From positions 1 through 64,000 of the IMG/VR virus record IMGVR_UViG_3300025030_000061: a stretch of DNA of 64,000 nt; one strand, given 5' to 3'. The number at the start of each line of letters is the position of its first letter. Within the stretch, counting starts at the first letter, position 1. A model generated the notes under the pieces. It searched no databases and was not told where the DNA came from. It was given only the letters and a program-made list of their open reading frames with translations. A program made the position numbers and the translations under genes. This document shows positions 1 through 46,170 of this stretch, piece after piece. Source of the DNA: a virus.

Positions 1-389
1 GTGCAGTTCGCCTTCCTTCATGGGGTTGCAGTCGCTGTCCAGGGCCTGGATCATGAGGTCTTCGACGGGCTCCCAGATGTTGGCTTCGTTTCCGGTGTAG
101 GCCAAGGTCTTGCCGTGGACGCAGCGGGCTATTTCGGCGCCGACCGTGTCGGGGATCCTCCCCTCAATCTTGCTCTGGTACTGGAGCACCCTGTCGCGGA
201 GGAGCGCTAGGCTGTGGCCGTGGGTGGCGTCCGCTCCGTGCTTGAGGGCCGAGAGGCGAAGGGTTTCGAGCGCGTCCGGCACTGAAACGTCTTTCGCGCA
301 GAGCAGCAGTGCATCGTGATGCGTGTAGGTCTTTCCTGTGACGGGGTTGATGGCGAAGATGAGGAATTTTCTGTCGATGGCGTCCATGG

Positions 390-935
390 CTACTCCTTCT
401 CCTTGATGGTGATCTTTCGGCCGCAGCGGTAGCAGCGGTCCATGTCGTCGTCGCGGTGGGTGACGGTGCTGCCATCACACCCGGCTATGTAGCAGTCGCT
501 ATCTCCAAGGTCGGAGGCTTCGGGCTGCGTCCAGGTGCAGGTCCCCCTGGGGGCCGGGTCGGTTGCGTCCTGCATCATCTCCAGAAAGGTGCTCTTGACC
601 GGGATAGTCGCTTCGAGCACTTCCTTGAAGGCGCGGTGGAGGCTGCTGCCGTTGCCGATCGTGGTGAGCTTGTTGGTGTCGAGGTAGCCGTCTGCGGTCG
701 ATACCGTGTCCCGGAGCAGGCGGATGGCTTCGCGGTCGCGGCCTTCCTTCCACTGCAGGAGCTGGATCGCGGTGATGAGGTCGTCCACTGCGCTGATGCC
801 TTCCTGGGGCGTCGTCGGTACCTGGATGCCGACGATCCTGGCAAGGTTGTCCATAAATTCGCCCATGCTCAGTATCTTCTCCTGGCGGGCCTCGGCGATC
901 TTCTGCCAGTCGGGGTTGGGGATCTGCTTTTCCAT
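390..935 (-). CDS. hypothetical phage protein with C-terminal Cys-rich (Zn-ribbon-like) segment
   Basis: 181-aa ORF with AGGAG RBS, C-terminal C..C..CYRC cluster, preceded by a TCATTCTG motif copy. Confidence 0.6.
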   Translation of the reverse strand: MEKQIPNPDWQKIAEARQEKILSMGEFMDNLARIVGIQVPTTPQEGISAVDDLITAIQLLQWKEGRDREAIRLLRDTVSTADGYLDTNKLTTIGNGSSLHRAFKEVLEATIPVKSTFLEMMQDATDPAPRGTCTWTQPEASDLGDSDCYIAGCDGSTVTHRDDDMDRCYRCGRKITIKEKE

Positions 936-1001
936 CTCGTCTCCTTTCCCCGGTCGGGGGCCTTCTGTTCTCTCTGGTGTTAAGCTGCAGCGCCAGAATG
1001 A

Positions 1002-1475
1002 TTATGCTGGTGTGAATAGGTTGCCTTGTATCGCTGCAGGCGCGGGTGGTGGTATGGTGGTGGGTACGGGGATGTTCTTCCCCTGGAGGTACTTCTTGAC
1101 GAGCATCTGCAGACGGCTCTCGTCGCTGTGGACCTCCTGGATCCCGAGGTGCGGATCCACGATCCCTTGGGCTTGGGAGCCCTTGAGCCCGAGCAGGTCG
1201 ATCAGCAGCGGATCGCTGCCGGAGTCGCTGCAGAGGAAGATCGCCATCACCTGGTTGAGCTGCCCTTCGCGGTCCAGGCGCCCTATGAGCTGGTGGTGGA
1301 TGGCCGGAGACCAGTCCAGTTCCCCGAATACGACCGTAGAGCAGCGCTGCTGGAGCCCGTCGATGCCTACGCCGCTGCGGAGGGATAGGATAAAGAGGTT
1401 GCTCTTGCCGCTGACGAATGTCTCGATCGCGTCGTTTTTCTGCTTCGGGCTCTCGCTGCCGGTGTACATCACCGG
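1002..1475 (-). pseudogene. SNF2-family helicase, C-terminal part (HELICc), separated from its N-terminal part by a cassette insertion
   Basis: PVMYTGSES..FILSLRSGVGIDGLQ..VVFGELDWSPAIHHQLIGRLDREGQ (SF2 motifs V/VI); same reading frame as 2382..3641. Confidence 0.85.
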
Positions 1476-1476
1476 G

Positions 1477-2325
1477 TTATGCCGCCGCCCGCAGTTCCGC
1501 CCGGATCTCCATCCAGAGTCTGCCGAGCATGTTCGCGCCGTCCCGATCCTCGCCCCAGCCCCAGAAGTCATCCCGCCAGGAATCCTCTACCAGTTCCCGG
1601 TCGCCGGTCGCCAACAACTTACGCTTCACGTATTCGTGCTGACCAGCCTTTGCCTGGAGGATCTTCTTCATGATGCCCACCTTCACATTATCCCAATCCT
1701 CCCGGCGAACCTCTTTGAATCGTTCCGCAATCTTGAACGCTTCGTGTGCGGACGGTGCGAGCAGAATCATTTCACGGATATTCGCCTGGTAAGGACTATT
1801 GAACTTCATCCAGTGATAGGCTGCCTCGGACGTGTCAAAACGATAGCCGAACCACTGGAGCGAGAATGCGGAGAAGTTCGACAAGACGTAGAAGTCCTGC
1901 TCGTAAAAGAGAACCTGCCCCGGTGCGTCCAGCTTGTGGCAGTCCGACCAGCGGAGCCCCTCCTGGTACTGCTCCATCGTGAGTTCAGCACCGCAGTCGT
2001 CGCAGTGAGCTACGCCTTTCGCCTGGTCGTGGCGGTCGCAGTAGAGGACATTGCTGAAGCAGTAAGGGCAACCTCCCGCCTGCATACCAGCAGCGACGCG
2101 CATAGACCTCACAACCATGGCGGCTAAGGCCTCATCCGCTTCACGGCCCTCGCCAGTGGTGAAATCCATGATAGAGCGGCAACCTTCAGAATCATCGAGG
2201 CAGAAACCGACCACGGTGCAGCCGTACTGTTGCGGTCGCTCTGGGTCCTCTAACATCGGCTCACAGCGCGAATCCAGCGCTTGAACCTCAAGTTCTTCAA
2301 TTGGTTCCCACGATTTCAGTTCCAT
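1477..2325 (-). CDS. NADAR (YbiA-like) protein with N-terminal CxxC..CxxC extension
   Basis: LSNFS..SEAAYHWMKF..DWDNVKVGIMKKILQAK..LLATGDRELVEDS..DDFWG..GANMLGRLWMEIR; ATG at 2325 after GAGG RBS. Confidence 0.9.
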   Translation of the reverse strand: MELKSWEPIEELEVQALDSRCEPMLEDPERPQQYGCTVVGFCLDDSEGCRSIMDFTTGEGREADEALAAMVVRSMRVAAGMQAGGCPYCFSNVLYCDRHDQAKGVAHCDDCGAELTMEQYQEGLRWSDCHKLDAPGQVLFYEQDFYVLSNFSAFSLQWFGYRFDTSEAAYHWMKFNSPYQANIREMILLAPSAHEAFKIAERFKEVRREDWDNVKVGIMKKILQAKAGQHEYVKRKLLATGDRELVEDSWRDDFWGWGEDRDGANMLGRLWMEIRAELRAAA

Positions 2326-2382
2326 CCTCACCCCCTCAGCGGGCATAACACCCGCTCGTGCCTGTCGGCACAGCTAAATTCG
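1477..2382. mobile_element. integron-gene-cassette-like insertion (906 bp) carrying a NADAR gene
   Basis: Bounded by G|TTATGCC (1476) and an attC-like hairpin ending in G|TT (2382); removal regenerates in-frame helicase ...AEYN-PVMY... Confidence 0.8.
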
Positions 2383-2388
2383 TTGTAC
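2342..2388 (+). other. attC-like recombination site (short, about 46 bp)
   Basis: GGCATAAC-ACCC-GCT(C)GTGCC-TGTC-GGCACAGC-TAAATTC-GTT: R'' box, unpaired spacers, L''/L' stem with one extrahelical base, R' GTT. Confidence 0.7.
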
Positions 2389-3641
2389 TCGGCCAGCTCC
2401 TTCAGCCAGATTTCGTAGACCTCGCGGTGCCATCCGGCGAGCACGACCGGTTCCCCGTTGTCGAGGAGGATCTTGACGAACTCGGCGACATGCTTCGCCT
2501 TGCTGACGCCAGTCCATTTCCGCATCATCATGTCCAGTTCGCGGGCTGCCTGGCCGCGTTCCATGAAGCTCCCGGTGGAGGCTCTGACCGCCAGTTGCTT
2601 GGCGAGGTCCTCGGCTGTCTTGAGCGTGGCCTCGTCGTAGCCGACCGTCTCAATGATCTTGTTGACCGGGGACAGCTCCTTGCCTACGTCGGCACGGGTG
2701 CGGCGCAGCATCAGGTACTTCTCCCGCAGGTAGGTCCCCAGGGCCTTCGGGTCCTTGATGATCATGTTCCGGCCGCCGTTGGACGATGCCCATTCCCTGG
2801 AAAAGTCGTCCCAGCTCCCCAGGCATCCTGGCTTGAGGATGTTCATGATGTTCCACATCTCGTCGCCGTAGTTGTAGACGGGGGTGGCGGTGAGCCCCAG
2901 GGACCACTGCACGTTCTGGCAGAGGTAGGAGGCTCCCTGTCCCTTCACCGTCCCGGTCCCGGTACGCAGCTCCTGGACCTCGTCAAATACGGCGAGCTTG
3001 AAGTATCCTGTGCGGAACGTCTCGATCCATCCGCCGAGGCAGGTGTACCGGAAAATGTAGACGTCCGCCTCGGGGAGCGGGTAGCTCCTGGTCTTCTTGA
3101 TGACGTGGACGCGCAGGTGAGAGAAGCTCTCGAGCTTTTCTTTCCATTGGCGGGGGAGGTGGCTCTGGACGACAATCGCCGCCGGCAGGTGTTCCGGCCG
3201 CGCTGCGGCGCCGATACCGACGTATGTCTTGCCGAGGCCTACCTCGTCTCCGCAGAGGAGTACTCCGTTGTGGTGCAGCACCTCGGTTGCCTGGGTCTGG
3301 TAGTGGCGCATCCCCTGACCGTCCTTAAGCATGGCGTAGGAGGGGGGCACGTAGTCTGGGCAGAGGATCGCCTCCATGTGGGCCTGGGTCTGGTAGAATC
3401 TAGCGCTTCCCGCCTCCAGGGCTGTCTGGTCCTCGTCGGTGATCTCCATCGGGTACCGCTGGGTGAACCAGAGCAGATCGGCGCAGTTCTCCTGATTGTT
3501 CTCGAACTCGAAGGGCGAGACCGCCATCTTACCGATCTTGGTGAAGATGCTCTTGAGCTTGATATTGACGTGTGGTTCGGTGTCGTGCATGTACCAGTAG
3601 CTGCCGGCGGCGTGCAGTGTCAGTTTGCCGTATGTCCTCAA
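2382..3641 (-). pseudogene. SNF2-family helicase, N-terminal part (ATPase domain), interrupted; ORF runs on to a stop at 2328 inside the insertion
   Basis: MRHYQ, LLCGDEVGLGKT (Walker A), VFDEVQ (Walker B), GLTATP, YLMLRRT. Confidence 0.88.
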
Positions 3642-4042
3642 ATCCAGGCCCTCCCGAGGGATAAATAAAAGGCAGGGACTCCCTCGATCTCTTGAGGGAG
3701 ACCCATTGCATGGTTGGTGACCAGGATGATGGCGGAGAGTTTGCCGGTCCGGCAGTAGCGCTGGAGCTGTCGGTACACCTCCATGGGGCCTCCGCCGATC
3801 TTGAGCTCTATTCCGATCCCTATCTCTTTGCCGCGTCCCGAGGTCGCGCTGGTCAGGGCTCGCTCTGGGACGTAGAAGTCGATGATGTTCTCCATGCGCT
3901 CGTCGCTGCCCAGGCGGTACTCGCGCTCGTGGCGGATCCCGTTGGCGTCGAGCGCCTGCCCGACCTCCTGCTGGGCGTTCTTCTCGGTGGAGAGGTCGAA
4001 GCGGTAGCGCTTGAGGGTCTCGATGATCGCCTGGGGTGTCAT
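3638..4042 (-). CDS. PD-(D/E)xK-like nuclease fold protein coupled to the helicase
   Basis: IIDFYV...GIGIELK...VYRQLQRY pattern; stop overlaps the helicase start. Confidence 0.55.
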   Translation of the reverse strand: MTPQAIIETLKRYRFDLSTEKNAQQEVGQALDANGIRHEREYRLGSDERMENIIDFYVPERALTSATSGRGKEIGIGIELKIGGGPMEVYRQLQRYCRTGKLSAIILVTNHAMGLPQEIEGVPAFYLSLGRAWI

Positions 4043-4910: not shown

Positions 4911-5042
4911 CTGTTGCTCCTTTCAGTGGTGAGTTCCTGCGCTCGGCCATCCGGCGCCTTGCTTCCTTAAGGCATTCGTGCAGAATGATCCAGTCTTCCT
5001 TACACCATGGCTTCATCGGCCATCCGCGTCGGTCCAGGCCTG

Positions 5043-5429
5043 TCATGCCTCTTGTCCCTCCCGAAGCGGTGAGCCCTGGAGGTTGTGGCGTCTCAGGTAG
5101 TCCATGTATTTCAGCGGCAGCAGGTGATTCGGTACAACTTTGAGGAGCGCTCGGCAGAGCAGCTTGACCATCATGGCGAGGTCGTGGATCCGCACGGTGT
5201 CCTTGTTGTCCTTTCCGCCGATGTTCGCCATAAACCGGGCATCTTCTCGTAGCAGCAGCTCCACGGCCGTGTCGCAGGCGCCGCTGATCGGTCGCCGGCC
5301 GCTTTCCCAATCCTGGTAGGTACGCCGTGGGGTCTTGATCCGCTTGGCCATCTCACCGGGTTTAAATCCGAGCGTTTTCCTGGCTGCCTTCAGCTGCTCG
5401 GAGGTAATGATGGGGTACTCGCTCGCCAT
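5043..5429 (-). CDS. XRE-family HTH protein
   Basis: QLKAARKTLGFKPGEMAKRIKTPRRTYQDWESGRR. Confidence 0.75.
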   Translation of the reverse strand: MASEYPIITSEQLKAARKTLGFKPGEMAKRIKTPRRTYQDWESGRRPISGACDTAVELLLREDARFMANIGGKDNKDTVRIHDLAMMVKLLCRALLKVVPNHLLPLKYMDYLRRHNLQGSPLREGQEA

Positions 5430-5823
5430 TTTTGTTTCCTTTCGCCTTGTTCTGCACGCATAGCGTGCGGATTTGCTAATTTGCACTTTTTCGCAAGTTA
5501 CTCTGTCACCGGCTTATATCCGGGACATGCCGGGTTGGGTCCGTGTCCGGTCCCGCAGTCGTCGCGCTCGCAGTCCATGACGTCCTGGCAGGGGACCGGC
5601 TGCGCCGGCCACTCGTACTCGCCGCGGCGATGCAGTCTGGTGGCCTCGGCGCTGTTCATGGTCAGCGGCAGCGGGTAGTGCCCGAGGATGTCGGGGCCGC
5701 GCCAGTTGCAGTCGTCGCCTCTGATCACGACGCCGACCGAGTAGCCTGCCGTCGGCTGCCTCAGTACCGCGTAGAGGCGGTCCGGTTCGATCTTCCCAGG
5801 GAGGCCTGGGATCCACTGTTGTT

Positions 5824-6036
5824 TCATGCCTGGTCCCCTTTCTCGGCGGCGAGCGTTTTCTTAGCGTCCTTGATCCAGTCTCTGATCGCATCCTCAATGG
5901 CAGCCTGCCGCTTGACGCCGGTTTGGGTGCATATGCGGTCGAGTTCTTCCAGGTCTGCTTGCTGGAGACGCAGCGAAAGCTGGGCCGTTTTGTTGCCTCC
6001 GGTCGTGGCACGTTTGATGCGTTCTTTCAGGTCCAT
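5824..6036 (-). CDS. ribbon-helix-helix (CopG-like) DNA-binding protein
   Basis: QLSLRLQQADLEELDRICTQTGVKRQAAIEDAIRDWI. Confidence 0.65.
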   Translation of the reverse strand: MDLKERIKRATTGGNKTAQLSLRLQQADLEELDRICTQTGVKRQAAIEDAIRDWIKDAKKTLAAEKGDQA

Positions 6037-6406
6037 GGGGTGCTCCTTCACTTCGTGGTGTGCTGCTTTCTGGTGAAAGCCCTGTGTGCAGAATGACGGC
6101 TCCAGGGGCTCGGCTTGACCAGCTCGAACGTCGTGGCGTCGATCGCCTTCTCCGCCTTGCGGCATTTACGCCAGGCGTACCAGAGCAAGAGCAGCGCTCC
6201 GGGGACCGTGTACCTGGGGTCGATCCAGTTCCAAGCGATCTGGCGGATCATATCCTCCTTCCCGCGATAGTCCATAATGAGGCTGCTGACGGCCATGTGG
6301 CTGGCGAATCCTGCCCACCAGATCGTCCCGGTGTTCTTCGTGCTCATGCGTCGCTCCTGGTGGTGCGGCTCCCCCTCTCCCGGCAGGGGAGGGGGAGCCT
6401 GGGGGT

Positions 6407-24552: not shown

Positions 24553-25007
24553 TTTAGTCCTCCTTTTGTTTGGTATGCGCTACACTGTAGGCGCAAGAAT
24601 GCCATTCTAGTGGCATTTCTTGTTTTTACGACGGCAGGTGGGGCAGTGTAGCTTCCTCAGTGTGTCCTGCTGTGCAAGTGTTATCTGTGTCTGCATGAGG
24701 TCGTCGGCTGCATTAAATGCCTGCCTTTGCTCGGGGGTAAGTGTTGCTTTGAACTCTTTAACTTTTGTGGCTATCTCTCGGATCAACTCCTGGCGGTCGT
24801 CAAGGATTTGTGACAGCGTATCCTCCCCCTCGAAGGGACATTCCATTCCTGCGTCCTCCCTTATCTTAATAGAATTACAGGCTTGTGGACTTCTGTGTGA
24901 TCCTTTGTTATAGTCTTTACCCATTAGACGGACTTTGTTATACGCTACACTTCATATCTAGGTCAAGCGTTTTCTGTTGTAAATCTTCCTTTTAATGATT
25001 GGTGCGA

Positions 25008-26414
25008 ATGGCCGCTATATATCTTCACAAAAAAGGCGGGCGCGATGTTTTCCAGATACGCTTCACCCTGTATTTACCCGATGGTAGCCGCAAAACTCGG
25101 TACCGGTATCGTCCAACAAAAAGCGAGGCCACAGATGTCCTGCGTCATGCCGAGTGCATAGAGAGTGGTTCTCGGTCGTGCAATTTGTCGCCTCGTGAAA
25201 TAATCCATGCCCAGCACGACGGCCTGCTCACTGCCGCCGAGGTTCTGATGTTCACTGGAGGGTTTGGGGTCCATGCCGAAAGGCGACGCCTAAGCACTTT
25301 AATGGATCGGTTTCACGAAATGCACCAGGGCCAGTGGCGTCCTCGGTCTAAGCAAAAGCTCGATGAAAGTTTTGGGAAAGTATTTGAGCTTCTGGGCGAC
25401 GTCTACACGGACGAGATCAATCAGGAGATGCTGCTCTCTTTCTTTCAGCAGCTCTCCGGTTACCCGAAGTGGCGGAATCATGCCCACCTGCAATCGCTCT
25501 CTCTGAACAATTGCATGAATTCACCGAATTACTCGCCTATCAGTAGCGCGACCTTCGATGGCATCTGGGCCACCCTGGGGGCGCTCTTGACCTACGGTTC
25601 GGAGAATGGGGAATATGGTATTGCTAGGAATTTTTGCGGGGATCGTATTTTCAGCCTACACCGGAAGCTTTTGGAGAAAACCCGGAACGACGGTGTGGAC
25701 CGGCTCCCCTATAGCAATTCGGATATCCGGCAGTTGATCCTCCGCCTGGGCATGATCGATAAGGTGGCCAATCCGCACATGCTGTGGATCCCCTTGATCG
25801 CCCTGTTCAATGGTATGCGCCAGGGCGAGATCTGCCAGCTCTTTTGCGATGATGTTGTGAAGGTGGACCGGATCATCTGTTTCAGAATTAGGGACTTTTC
25901 GGCTCGGAAGCAGAGCGTAAAAAACGAGGGGAGCTGCCGGACGATCCCGGTTCATCCGACGCTGCTCGGCCTGGGGTTTATGGACTTCGTCGCCTCCCGG
26001 TTGAGGCTCGGCCACGAGCGTCTCTGGCAAGGCGTAAAATCTCGAAAGGTGGAATACTACGAGAAGCAGGACAACTATTCTCACTATTTCGAAAAGTGGT
26101 ATAACGACACTTTTAGAAAATATGTGATCTTGGAGCCGAAAGATCGAAAGCGGAAGCCGTTCCATTCGCTTCGGCATACCTTCATCAACTGGTTCTTCCA
26201 GAATGTTCGGTCGCAGGATCGGGACAATGCTGCGGTGAAAAGCCTGGTCGGGCATCTCGAATCCGACGAGCACAAGATGATCGACGCTCTGCTGAAAGGG
26301 ATAAGTTGGGAGGTCTATAGCCAACAATTAACTCCTAAGCCCTTGCTGAAAACATTAGAGCTGTTAAACTTTAATGTTGATCTGTCTTCTCTCAATTTGC
26401 CGGCGAAGTGGTAG
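25008..26414 (+). CDS. int: tyrosine recombinase / integrase
   Basis: GMRQGEICQL (R), VKN..RTIPVH (K), FHSLRHTF (HxxR), LVGH, VYS (Y); N-terminal arm-binding-like segment. Confidence 0.92.
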   Translation: MAAIYLHKKGGRDVFQIRFTLYLPDGSRKTRYRYRPTKSEATDVLRHAECIESGSRSCNLSPREIIHAQHDGLLTAAEVLMFTGGFGVHAERRRLSTLMDRFHEMHQGQWRPRSKQKLDESFGKVFELLGDVYTDEINQEMLLSFFQQLSGYPKWRNHAHLQSLSLNNCMNSPNYSPISSATFDGIWATLGALLTYGSENGEYGIARNFCGDRIFSLHRKLLEKTRNDGVDRLPYSNSDIRQLILRLGMIDKVANPHMLWIPLIALFNGMRQGEICQLFCDDVVKVDRIICFRIRDFSARKQSVKNEGSCRTIPVHPTLLGLGFMDFVASRLRLGHERLWQGVKSRKVEYYEKQDNYSHYFEKWYNDTFRKYVILEPKDRKRKPFHSLRHTFINWFFQNVRSQDRDNAAVKSLVGHLESDEHKMIDALLKGISWEVYSQQLTPKPLLKTLELLNFNVDLSSLNLPAKW

Positions 26415-45654: not shown

Positions 45655-46170
45655 TTACGGCAGCATCGAAGCCGGGATGCTGTTATCTCCCGTGGTTAGC
45701 GCGGGTGAGGTGGTGACGGTTTTCGGCACCTCGATGGTCACGCGGTTGCCGTCTCCTGTGATGGTGCAATTAACGGTGGAACACCCATGGAGCAGTGCAA
45801 TCGCCAGAAGTGCGGCCACTTTAAACATGCCATTCTCCCGGGCTTTGCCACCCCCACAAAGCCATGTGGCCCAAAACCACCTCTTGCTCTGCCAGTAGCG
45901 CCCCTCCTCGACCAGTATGTCCTGCAGTACCTGGGAGCACTGCCAATTACTGAGAGGGGTGCCATCGTCCCACGTGCCATTCCTGCACAGTTCGTCATGC
46001 ACCCACCAGCTGCGCGACGTGATGTCCATGGCACCGGTCGCGCCGTCGCTTATCCGGTTGGCTGGGATGTTGACGGATTTGCCGTACCTGTAGGAGTAGT
46101 ATTCAAACCCTTTGTTTAACGTGTAGGTGCCGTCGTTGTTGATACTTTGGTCGATTTCGAAGCTTTTCAT
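45655..46170 (-). CDS. DUF1353-like protein with in-frame C-terminal lipoprotein-like segment
   Basis: SDGAT..WVHD; then MFKVAALLAIALLHGC lipobox. Confidence 0.6.
   Translation of the reverse strand: MKSFEIDQSINNDGTYTLNKGFEYYSYRYGKSVNIPANRISDGATGAMDITSRSWWVHDELCRNGTWDDGTPLSNWQCSQVLQDILVEEGRYWQSKRWFWATWLCGGGKARENGMFKVAALLAIALLHGCSTVNCTITGDGNRVTIEVPKTVTTSPALTTGDNSIPASMLP

Follow-up and report, generated by a model that had tools for sequence, protein, structure and literature searches.

How did a NADAR gene come to lie inside the SNF2 helicase gene of a phage, and does it still move in and out? The window analysed here is a stretch of 64,000 nucleotides of virus record IMGVR_UViG_3300025030_000061, part of a 95-kb groundwater phage genome. 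A reading made from the sequence alone had proposed that 906 bp within the helicase gene resemble an integron cassette with an attC site at a secondary G|TT point, and had left two alternatives, the capture of a single cassette by the phage or a reversible switch. Integrons are bacterial gene-capture devices and have lately been recognised also as stores of anti-phage defence cassettes. We compared the locus with phages, proviruses and metagenome contigs to decide between these readings and others.

Results

Re-reading the window confirmed the proposed coordinates and letters: GTT stands at 1476-1478 and again at 2382-2384, and the insert between them (1477..2382) measures 906 bp. Deleting it leaves a stop-free helicase frame of 1734 nt (577 codons) with the junction E-Y-N-P-V-M, as had been stated, and the outer arms GTTATGCC (1476-1483) and GGCATAAC (2342-2349) are exact reverse complements that form a perfect 8-bp pair. 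Over aa 1-551, the restored frame aligned as one unbroken segment with the uninterrupted helicase of L003 (51% identity), and Pfam placed SNF2-rel_dom in the N-terminal helicase part, NADAR in the insert and Helicase_C in the C-terminal part. At the left junction, G|TTATGCC (1476..1483), the target G is joined to the cassette's own R' core, and the 906-bp cassette has canonical polarity on the plus strand (TTATGCC...attC...G). An empty site joining 1476 to 2385 would read ...GAGTACAACCCGGTGATG..., and the circle junction of the excised cassette would read ...GGCGGCATAA|CGAATTTAGC... (GGCATAA|CGAATTT).

Both helicase parts lie on the minus strand. The N-terminal part (2383..3641) consists of 419 codons plus AA, the first two bases of the Asn codon that the crossover splits; it matches PF00176 SNF2-rel_dom with 53.8 bits and shares 95% identity with residues 1-420 of the unsplit relative P0001 (578 aa). 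Its frame reads through into the cassette (2328..2382, minus strand) for 18 foreign codons and ends at a TGA (2328-2330) that sits within the ribosome-binding site of the NADAR gene, giving a helicase ORF of 2328..3641. The C-terminal part (1002..1476) begins with the last base of the Asn codon, followed by 157 codons and a stop, and is 89% identical to P0001 residues 422-578; its match to the PF00271 Helicase_C profile, positions 41-109, begins exactly at the junction. GTG 1470-1472 and ATG 1467-1469, 4 and 7 nt past the NADAR stop, are candidate restart codons.

With a length divisible by three and the helicase parts in one frame, the insert might be taken for an intron or an intein, or the locus for a long-standing natural two-gene helicase or a chimera of the assembly, but we give these explanations almost no credence. 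The helicase frame meets the TGA after 18 codons, and positions 1300-2600 matched no Rfam family, introns included, at E<=1. Homologues naturally divided into two genes, which the sequence-only reading had considered as a counterexample, did not appear, as the best 120 helicase relatives were all unsplit and full length (517-619 aa). Furthermore, Logan contigs from three runs (word depths 233, 84 and 15) span the insertion allele and cross both junctions, although these runs may be the assembly's own source and are thus not independent support.

The NADAR gene (1477..2325, minus strand) encodes 282 aa from ATG 2325 to the stop TAA at 1477-1479, or 289 aa from an alternative in-frame upstream ATG at 2346. 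Its ribosome-binding site GAGGGGGTGAGG (2326..2337, minus strand) lies directly past the R'' box of the attC site. The protein combines an N-terminal cysteine-rich module of ~135 aa with a YbiA-like NADAR domain (PF08719, 96.6 bits against a cut-off of 35.1; TIGR02464, 98.3 bits). Compared with known structures, it matched YbiA 2B3W (E=1.8e-16) and 8BAU (E=4e-5), and its LVED...DDFWGWG aligned with LVEH...DAYWGDG of YbiA. By homology, it is likely an ADP-ribosyl-glycohydrolase like those that phages use against DNA ADP-ribosylation by DarT1; phage NADARs neutralise DarTG1 (PMC11825919). The 'restriction alleviation protein' encoded after the helicase of Pseudomonas phage D14I is not homologous to it.

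The attC site (2342..2384) consists of the R'' box GGCATAAC (2342-2349), the spacer ACCC (2350-2353), an L stem formed by 2354-2362 (GCTCGTGCC) and 2367-2374 (GGCACAGC) around the loop TGTC (2363-2366), the spacer TAAATTC (2375-2381) and the crossover triplet G|TT (2382-2384). The L stem has 8 bp and a single bulge, which is a G on the gene strand and sits in the 3' arm of the strand that bears AAC; the spacers measure 7 and 4 nt and the loop 4 nt, and the circularised site folds with its R stem closed. This agrees, as do the other folded sites, with the bottom-strand attC geometry of an extrahelical base opposite the cleaved AAC (PMC5027507). The R boxes differ from RYYYAAC/GTTRRRY in a single position, and the site, 42 nt (AAC to GTTATGC) to 46 nt long, falls below the classical 57-141 bp. 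Another contig of the same groundwater sample (X1 record 2) carries the same 46-nt site (42/46 identical) with other flanks, and in L080 and L078 the identical L stem and spacers are joined to a different gene.

A loose scan of the 95-kb genome for AAC, hairpin, GTTNNNNN and closure found 34 matches against 40-80 in shuffled genomes; the motif alone is thus not beyond chance, and its significance comes from comparative evidence. The covariance model R1, a small model built on six other phage attC sites, four of them from one array, gave no match at 2342-2384 (E<=10, filters off). Neither the motif scan nor R1 revealed a convincing attC of a second cassette in the 95-kb genome. The best match of R1 within the window was at 45707-45746 (16.9 bits, E=0.06).

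The search for the same unit at other GTT sites returned a copy with the same G|TT boundaries. Positions 3963-4871 of L004 are 100% identical to window positions 2384..1476 (909 bp, that is, 906 plus the shared AAC); beyond the shared AAC, this contig has zero homology to the window phage on either side, and the junctions read ...AA|C in both contexts. The metagenome contig L094 carries the same cassette DNA. In L004, the cassette ends 59 bp upstream of an integron integrase ORF (4930-6096), which scores 322.7 bits with TIGR02249 (cut-off 265) and aligns with VchIntIA 2A3V (E=2e-59) through the IntI-specific patch ...ELPDALAKKYPAYPRELGWQFLFP.... The host of this IntI is a tailed provirus with terminase, capsid, sheath, tape measure, GemA and endolysin genes, the structural genes of the IntI proviruses being shown by PHROGs. 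It lies on Ga0209317_1000033, a metagenome contig of 201 kb. In the IntI proviruses, the profiles for TerL_ATPase, Mu DDE_2 and Mu F gave no match, DDE_2 missing its target in every control genome too; we do not call these proviruses Mu-like and state only that a GemA domain is present.

Another provirus, L005, encodes a NADAR that is 77% identical, in an alignment beginning at residue 8, and its cassette is the second in an IntI-linked array. The flanks of this cassette have no DNA homology, yet the site architecture is the same, GCCTAAC/GTTAGGC replacing GGCATAAC/GTTATGCC as the boxes, a set of compensating changes. The GC contents of the cassette (0.578), the phage (0.595) and the donor-type provirus (0.616) are not separable and thus give no direction of transfer.

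These copies bear on the possibility that the unit is merely cassette-like, being a homing-endonuclease gene, a small transposon that leaves a 3-bp target duplication or a phage moron moved by another recombinase. The AAC at both ends can be read as such a duplication, the cysteine-rich N-terminal module has a faint Lar-like match (E=0.008), and R1 gave the window site no score. However, the ORF encodes neither a nuclease nor a transposase domain, the ends have no terminal inverted repeats, there is no flanking co-conversion between the two contexts, the same attC is joined to unrelated genes, and the identical copy occupies the attI-like position that closes every cassette chain on the IntI side. 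A non-integron element is thus highly improbable.

Four IntI loci carry cassettes chained end to end (1, 2, 2 and 4 cassettes), and a conserved attI-like sequence closes every chain, 48-60 bp before intI. Nine sites in these four arrays share one fold: when circularised, they form an R stem of 8-10 bp, then an internal loop, then an L stem whose bulge faces the cleaved AAC, and finally a loop of 4-41 nt. The outer boxes of the eight other sites pair over 7-10 bp, and the attC length in the family ranges from 40 to 86 nt. Among six other sites, 85.6% of cells pair, compared with 69.9% after shuffling and 24-37% with slid partners, and eight pairs show compensatory change. The nine cassettes examined all code their gene on the bottom strand of attC, the reverse of classical integrons, and a ribosome-binding site just after the R'' box is also present in the cassettes of L005, L072 and L075. 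The window NADAR gene likewise lies on the strand of the cleaved AAC with attC 5' of the ORF, departing from the classical polarity with attC downstream. The two features noted earlier as atypical, a short site and a gene that faces away from attC, are the norm in this integron family of viral contigs. The IntIs on viral contigs are 53-68% identical among themselves, and no IntI in 185,579 species genomes exceeds 47% identity to them.

The helicase is normally unsplit, a point that the sequence-only reading had proposed to check. The closest relative, P0001, which is encoded on a 61-kb contig, is 95% identical, and its 578 aa cover both parts. In addition, a contig of the sediment metagenome X5 encodes a helicase that is ~92% identical and lacks exactly the 906 bp of the cassette, linking 1476 to 2394 with 11 replaced letters. 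Run X5 also yielded two short pieces, a contig of 209 bp that is identical to positions 1494-1702 of the cassette and a stretch of 38 nt matching 2320-2357, neither long enough to name a context. In IMG/VR, exact-pattern searches with the window's own flanks and with the X5 variant flanks found no empty helicase site.

The proposed switch between 'helicase intact' and 'NADAR expressed, helicase split', through regular excision and re-insertion by an integrase, found no support in these data, and we consider it very unlikely. Conservative recombination at the two GTT sites would exactly restore the 577-aa frame, and cassettes at attG sites are reportedly excisable at the integration point. However, the phage has no IntI: the sequence-only reading had recognised neither IntI nor attI in the window, and the 95-kb genome contained no IntI relative at E<=1. 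Its sole tyrosine recombinase, encoded near 25008, is a weak, non-IntI match below the cut-off (PF00589, E=7e-4). No partner structure of the attC or attI kind is present at the left junction, and the three source runs assemble the insertion allele and no empty-allele contig, though contigs cannot show rare variants. Furthermore, the closest unsplit relative has CGC, not AAC, at the insertion site, which makes it a different lineage rather than an excision product.

Discussion

The proposal of an integron-type cassette with attC at a secondary G|TT point is borne out by the identical copy at the attI of an IntI, the covarying homologue and the empty-site relative, and of the two alternatives for its origin, the capture of a single cassette by the phage is the one supported. 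The window phage has no complete integron (intI, attI and cassettes) and holds a lone cassette. We thus conclude that positions 1477-2382 are very probably an integron cassette, inserted in trans by an IntI at an attG-type GTT within the phage SNF2 helicase gene. As the phage has no IntI, we infer the enzyme, both that it was an IntI and which one, and regard the event as a lone off-target (attG-type) insertion in trans. Since all 906 of 906 bp are identical to the copy at attI beside intI in a tailed provirus, the insertion is very recent.

Considering these results, we propose the following scenario. An integron integrase from elsewhere probably inserted a unit of one gene and a folded attC at a secondary GTT (attG-type) in the helicase gene of a 95-kb groundwater phage without an integron of its own. 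The source pool is probably the integron family on phages and proviruses, in which genes on the attC bottom strand are read towards intI, with attC lying 5' of the gene and spacing its ribosome-binding site. On the minus strand, the resulting order is the N-terminal helicase part (419 aa with an 18-aa foreign tail), NADAR and the C-terminal helicase part; because no promoter or terminator lies between them, NADAR would be expressed from the replication operon of the phage.

More tentatively, and with slightly less than even confidence, we suggest that integrons owned by phages, with their own IntI clade, short attCs and reverse genes, trade counter-defence genes, and that this locus is an off-target product of that trade. 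If so, the cargo of phage integrons, namely NADAR, DNA methyltransferases and ASCH/DUF3850 proteins, would be moved between unrelated phages, and the cassette would have left the integron of a temperate phage in a shared host and landed in the helicase gene of a second phage. This recipient would nevertheless have become abundant, its helicase either working in two pieces or being lost at a cost outweighed by NADAR. Integron machinery would then stand on the phage side, moving a likely counter-defence gene between phages.

What is new here is a probable cassette transfer into a core phage gene, caught in the act. The donor-type copy, the recipient and the empty site are all available at nucleotide resolution, making the locus a concrete natural example of the attG type and indicating that such insertions can strike core phage genes. 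This may be a route to part of phage mosaicism, in which single accessory genes appear at odd places with GTT as the sole scar. The locus also supplies matched attC, attI, target and IntI substrates for recombination.

Comparison with known systems

The orphan AdfN NADARs, antitoxin-like enzymes that act against DarTG1 (Johannesman et al., 2025, PMC11825919; Schuller et al., 2023, PMC11543638), resemble the window protein in being phage-encoded and stand-alone with a YbiA-like core, whereas the window NADAR, its function assigned by homology, adds the N-terminal module of ~135 aa and travels as an integron cassette.

Classical integrons (class 1 and the chromosomal integron of Vibrio cholerae with VchIntIA, 2A3V) share with the viral family the extra domain of IntI, an attI by the 5' end of intI, insertion at attI, and attC sites built of R and L boxes with a spacer in the centre and an extrahelical base that faces the cleaved AAC. 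The viral family differs in that its genes lie on the attC bottom strand towards intI, its attC sites are as short as ~40 nt, and no outward promoter of the Pc type is implied, expression coming from the phage operon. No integron, mobile or chromosomal, has ever been seen to carry cassettes that face the promoter, according to PMC5027507.

Among 10,705 phages, Qi, Rajabal, Ghaly, Tetu and Gillings (2023, PMC9892861) found three complete integrons, mostly pieces of host integrons, together with attC clusters. Those phage integrons and CALINs likewise place IntI, attC and cassettes, often encoding DNA methyltransferases, on phage genomes; here, in contrast, the viral IntIs form a group of 53-68% identity, all genes are reverse-coded, and one cassette splits a gene outside an array.

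A further likeness is to cassette insertion at secondary or genomic attG sites, which, according to later accounts, is established (Loot et al., 2024, via PMC12614218 and PMC12901181). Such insertions (Recchia and Hall; Loot et al., 2024, also via PMC12444791) share with the window a lone attC cassette outside an integron, a bare G|TT crossover, a target without attI or attC structure, the use of a neighbour's promoter and an integrase acting in trans. Unlike those cases, the target here is a core replication gene of a phage genome, the cassette comes from a phage-borne integron with its gene on the opposite strand, and the event is a natural one for which both a donor-type copy and an empty-site relative have been found.

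RESULTS

A discrete insert in a normally whole helicase gene

Re-reading of the sequence and its ORFs agreed with the arrangement described by the sequence-only reading, with both helicase parts and the NADAR gene on the minus strand. The N part of the SNF2 helicase runs from 3641 down to the codon AAC at 2384–2382 and then reads through 18 foreign codons to TGA (2328–2330) in the inserted cassette; the NADAR gene starts at ATG 2325, preceded by GAGGGGGTGAGG, and stops at TAA 1479–1477, and the helicase C part resumes with AAC at 1478–1476 and ends at 1002. Copies of GTT at 1476–1478 and 2382–2384 delimit a crossover-bounded stretch of 906 bp (1477–2382). As had been anticipated, deleting the cassette yields a continuous, stop-free helicase of 577 codons, and this frame aligned in a single piece with the uninterrupted 568-aa helicase of L003 (51% identity, aa 1–551), which reads F-N-P-V-M-Y at the junction position. 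Pfam placed SNF2-rel_dom in the N part and Helicase_C in the C part; since the matched Helicase_C profile positions (41–109) begin exactly at the junction, the cut falls within the second RecA-like lobe rather than between domains in a linker. The reconstructed empty target (window 1464–1476 plus 2383–2389) reads GTACA-TCACCGGGT-TGTAC, a 5-bp inverted repeat around GTT, and ACCGGCAGC, 12 nt downstream, is similar to the CGGCGGC box of attI sites; both features may be due to chance.

The helicase is normally whole. Relatives naturally encoded as two genes, which had been named as evidence against a cassette, did not appear: the 120 best database matches to the N part (51–95% identity) were full length, all of them 517–619 aa. 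In the closest, P0001 (578 aa), residues 1–420 match the N part (95%) and 422–578 the C part (89%), one Arg separating the two stretches. Furthermore, a sediment metagenome from a different study (X5) holds a 4.3-kb contig with about 92% identity to the two helicase parts. It runs from window 1476 to 2394 through 11 letters that take the place of 2383–2393; exactly 906 bp are missing. The insertion allele was bridged by separate Logan contigs from three groundwater runs (word depths 233, 84 and 15), which rules out an assembly chimera, though the assembly may derive from these very runs, which are thus not independent evidence. It was abundant and the sole allele assembled into contigs in the three groundwater samples, suggesting that the phage tolerates the split. 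A reversible switch, by which the phage would alternate between an intact helicase and an expressed NADAR gene, found no support at the level of assembled contigs and is very improbable.

An identical copy beside an integron integrase

The insert is a self-contained mobile unit. The viral contig L004, whose DNA is also represented by the 201-kb metagenome contig L094, contains a stretch 100% identical to window 2384..1476, with similarity absent on both sides; in both contexts AAC on the gene strand flanks the cassette. The end of this copy is followed, after 59 bp, by a 388-aa ORF that scored 322.7 bits on NCBIfam TIGR02249 'integron integrase' (cut-off 265) and matched the Vibrio IntI structure 2A3V (E=2e-59) in an alignment running through the IntI-specific segment. 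Judged by these matches, the neighbour of the cassette is an integron integrase. The element is a tailed provirus in which a GemA-domain early gene and a GH108 endolysin flank intI, and it also has a large terminase, head protease, major head protein, tail sheath and tape measure.

At the left end of the window's cassette, GTTATGCC is the exact complement of GGCATAAC at 2342–2349, and the interval from the latter box to the right-hand GTT contains an 8-bp stem, in which a single base is bulged, and a loop of 4 nt. Loosely defined, the motif alone was not rarer than chance in a scan of the 95-kb genome, and a covariance model from six other phage attCs gave no match at the window's site. The top match of the attC covariance model in the window was a GTGAC...GTCAC hairpin at 45707–45746 (+; 16.9 bits, E=0.06).

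A family of integrons on viral contigs

With the L004 IntI as query, seven further loci were found on viral contigs (43–68% identical). No IntI in 185,579 species genomes shares more than 47% identity with these IntIs, against 53–68% among the closer viral-contig ones. Units are chained end to end in L005/L071, L072 and L075, each terminating in NNNNAA directly before the C where the next starts, and the IntI-linked chains hold 1, 2, 2 and 4 cassettes. The last cassette adjoins a conserved region, 48–60 bp before intI, in which AAC is followed by TWSTGMTTMTC, then CGGCGGCATA, then the RBS and ATG. From the last cassette to the intI start codon, this region spans 5943–6000 in L070, 5942–6000 in L072, 5954–6000 in L071, 4086–4143 in L075 and about 1085–1143 in L074, and it behaves as an attI would.

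The NADAR of provirus L005 is 77% identical to the window's, DNA similarity ending at the L005 start codon; the site upstream has the same build, with GCCTAAC/GTTAGGC replacing GGCATAAC/GTTATGCC and a different stem bulged at the same place. All nine sites folded as circles formed an outer stem of 8–10 bp, an internal loop, an inner stem bulged on its 3' arm and a loop of 4–41 nt. When six sites other than the window's were aligned, 85.6% of cells paired, compared with 69.9% in shuffles and 24–37% with partners slid, and eight pairs showed changes on both sides. In the family, attC lies 5' of the ORF, directly ahead of the RBS, and genes point towards intI. In the bottom strand of attC, the one that is recombined, the cleaved 5'-AAC-3' and the extrahelical bases stand on opposite arms (PMC5027507); the gene strand here shows this geometry, and thus attC polarity relative to intI/attI is canonical and every gene is bottom-strand coded. 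The short site and 'wrong-way' gene, considered atypical from the window alone, are indeed present but are the rule in this IntI-linked family.

This type of attC also occurs with other genes. A 6.8-kb contig from the window's own groundwater sample (X1 record 2) shares 42 of the 46 nt of 2339–2384 between different flanks. L080 (IMGVR_UViG_3300002989_000038), a 44-kb viral contig without IntI, carries a single 740-bp cassette (3154–3895, minus strand) with a DUF3850/ASCH gene; its attC has exactly the stem and spacers of the window's site but a different R box, GTTAAACC. This is a second case of a lone cassette on a phage contig that lacks IntI. The cassette is placed among small ORFs, with a 632-aa ORF (putative terminase) about 1 kb downstream of it. 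Provirus L078 (IMGVR_UViG_2721755202_000003) has four chained cassettes (reverse-complement 907–3399), two with the window's attC type. No IntI was found in this record; because the array runs towards the record's edge, intI may lie just beyond it. The product of one L078 cassette is homologous to the zinc-finger cassette protein of L075. Cargo of other cassettes included an N6/N4 DNA methyltransferase, an ASCH protein and a DnaJ-type zinc-finger protein. In the X5 sample, part of the cassette recurs unchanged as a 209-bp contig, and a 13-kb contig has a similar R''/RBS stretch at its end (records 10 and 11). Together with the near-identical attC of X1, these contigs point to a cassette pool in both groundwater and sediment habitats.

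The window's genome had no IntI relative at E<=1 across its 95 kb, and neither the loose motif scan nor the attC covariance model made a second cassette evident; the window thus holds a lone cassette at a secondary site. With a 126-bp overlap between its ends, the genome is circular or terminally redundant and probably complete. The recombinase near 25008, earlier proposed as a candidate, is a 471-aa ORF (24999–26414, +) that matches Phage_integrase only below threshold (E=7e-4) and is not IntI.

DISCUSSION

The boundaries of the cassette, its identity to an attI-sited copy beside a true IntI, the conserved, covarying structure of its site and the unsplit relatives of the helicase were demonstrated in the present study, and the interpretation as an integron cassette is very probably correct. 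An IntI in the same cell would have excised or copied the cassette as a circle and recombined the cassette's folded bottom strand, in the replicating phage genome, with the GTT where the N and P codons meet. An L004-like prophage would be the most economical source of IntI, since it holds an identical cassette. Because the non-coding strand carries the target GTT, the backwards-coded NADAR gene reads in the same direction as the helicase. Between 4200 and 900 the minus strand showed neither a sigma-70-like promoter nor a terminator, and NADAR should thus be co-transcribed with the replication genes. The helicase-N stop lies inside the NADAR RBS and the NADAR stop lies 4 and 7 nt ahead of in-frame GTG and ATG codons of helicase-C; translation of all three genes could be coupled.

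The core of the NADAR protein aligns with YbiA, retaining the Glu...Asp..Trp-Gly motif, and phage NADARs strip DarT1 ADP-ribose from DNA (PMC11825919, PMC11543638); from this likeness, our best guess is that the cassette's NADAR may serve in counter-defence. Two genes downstream of the helicase, a resident gene of the phage (a 216-aa ORF across the genome joint; window 1–387, minus strand, continuing at 94924–94664 of the whole genome, G000) has no NADAR domain. Its residues 101–179 are 63% identical to residues 9–84 of the cassette NADAR (E=4e-30), so the resident and cassette proteins share an N-terminal module.

Lone cassettes at GTT-type 'attG' sites are known products of integron integrases, as Loot et al. 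(2024) are cited in PMC12614218, PMC12901181 and PMC12444791. In mobile or chromosomal integrons, promoter-facing cassettes have never been seen (PMC5027507), whereas the genes here read towards intI. Among 10,705 phages, Qi et al. (2023; PMC9892861) counted three complete integrons and 17 clusters of attC sites, for the most part host-integron fragments; no paper that we found describes reverse-coded cassettes in phage integrons. What is new here is a single cassette outside an array and inside a core phage gene, with both an identical donor-type copy and an empty-site relative.
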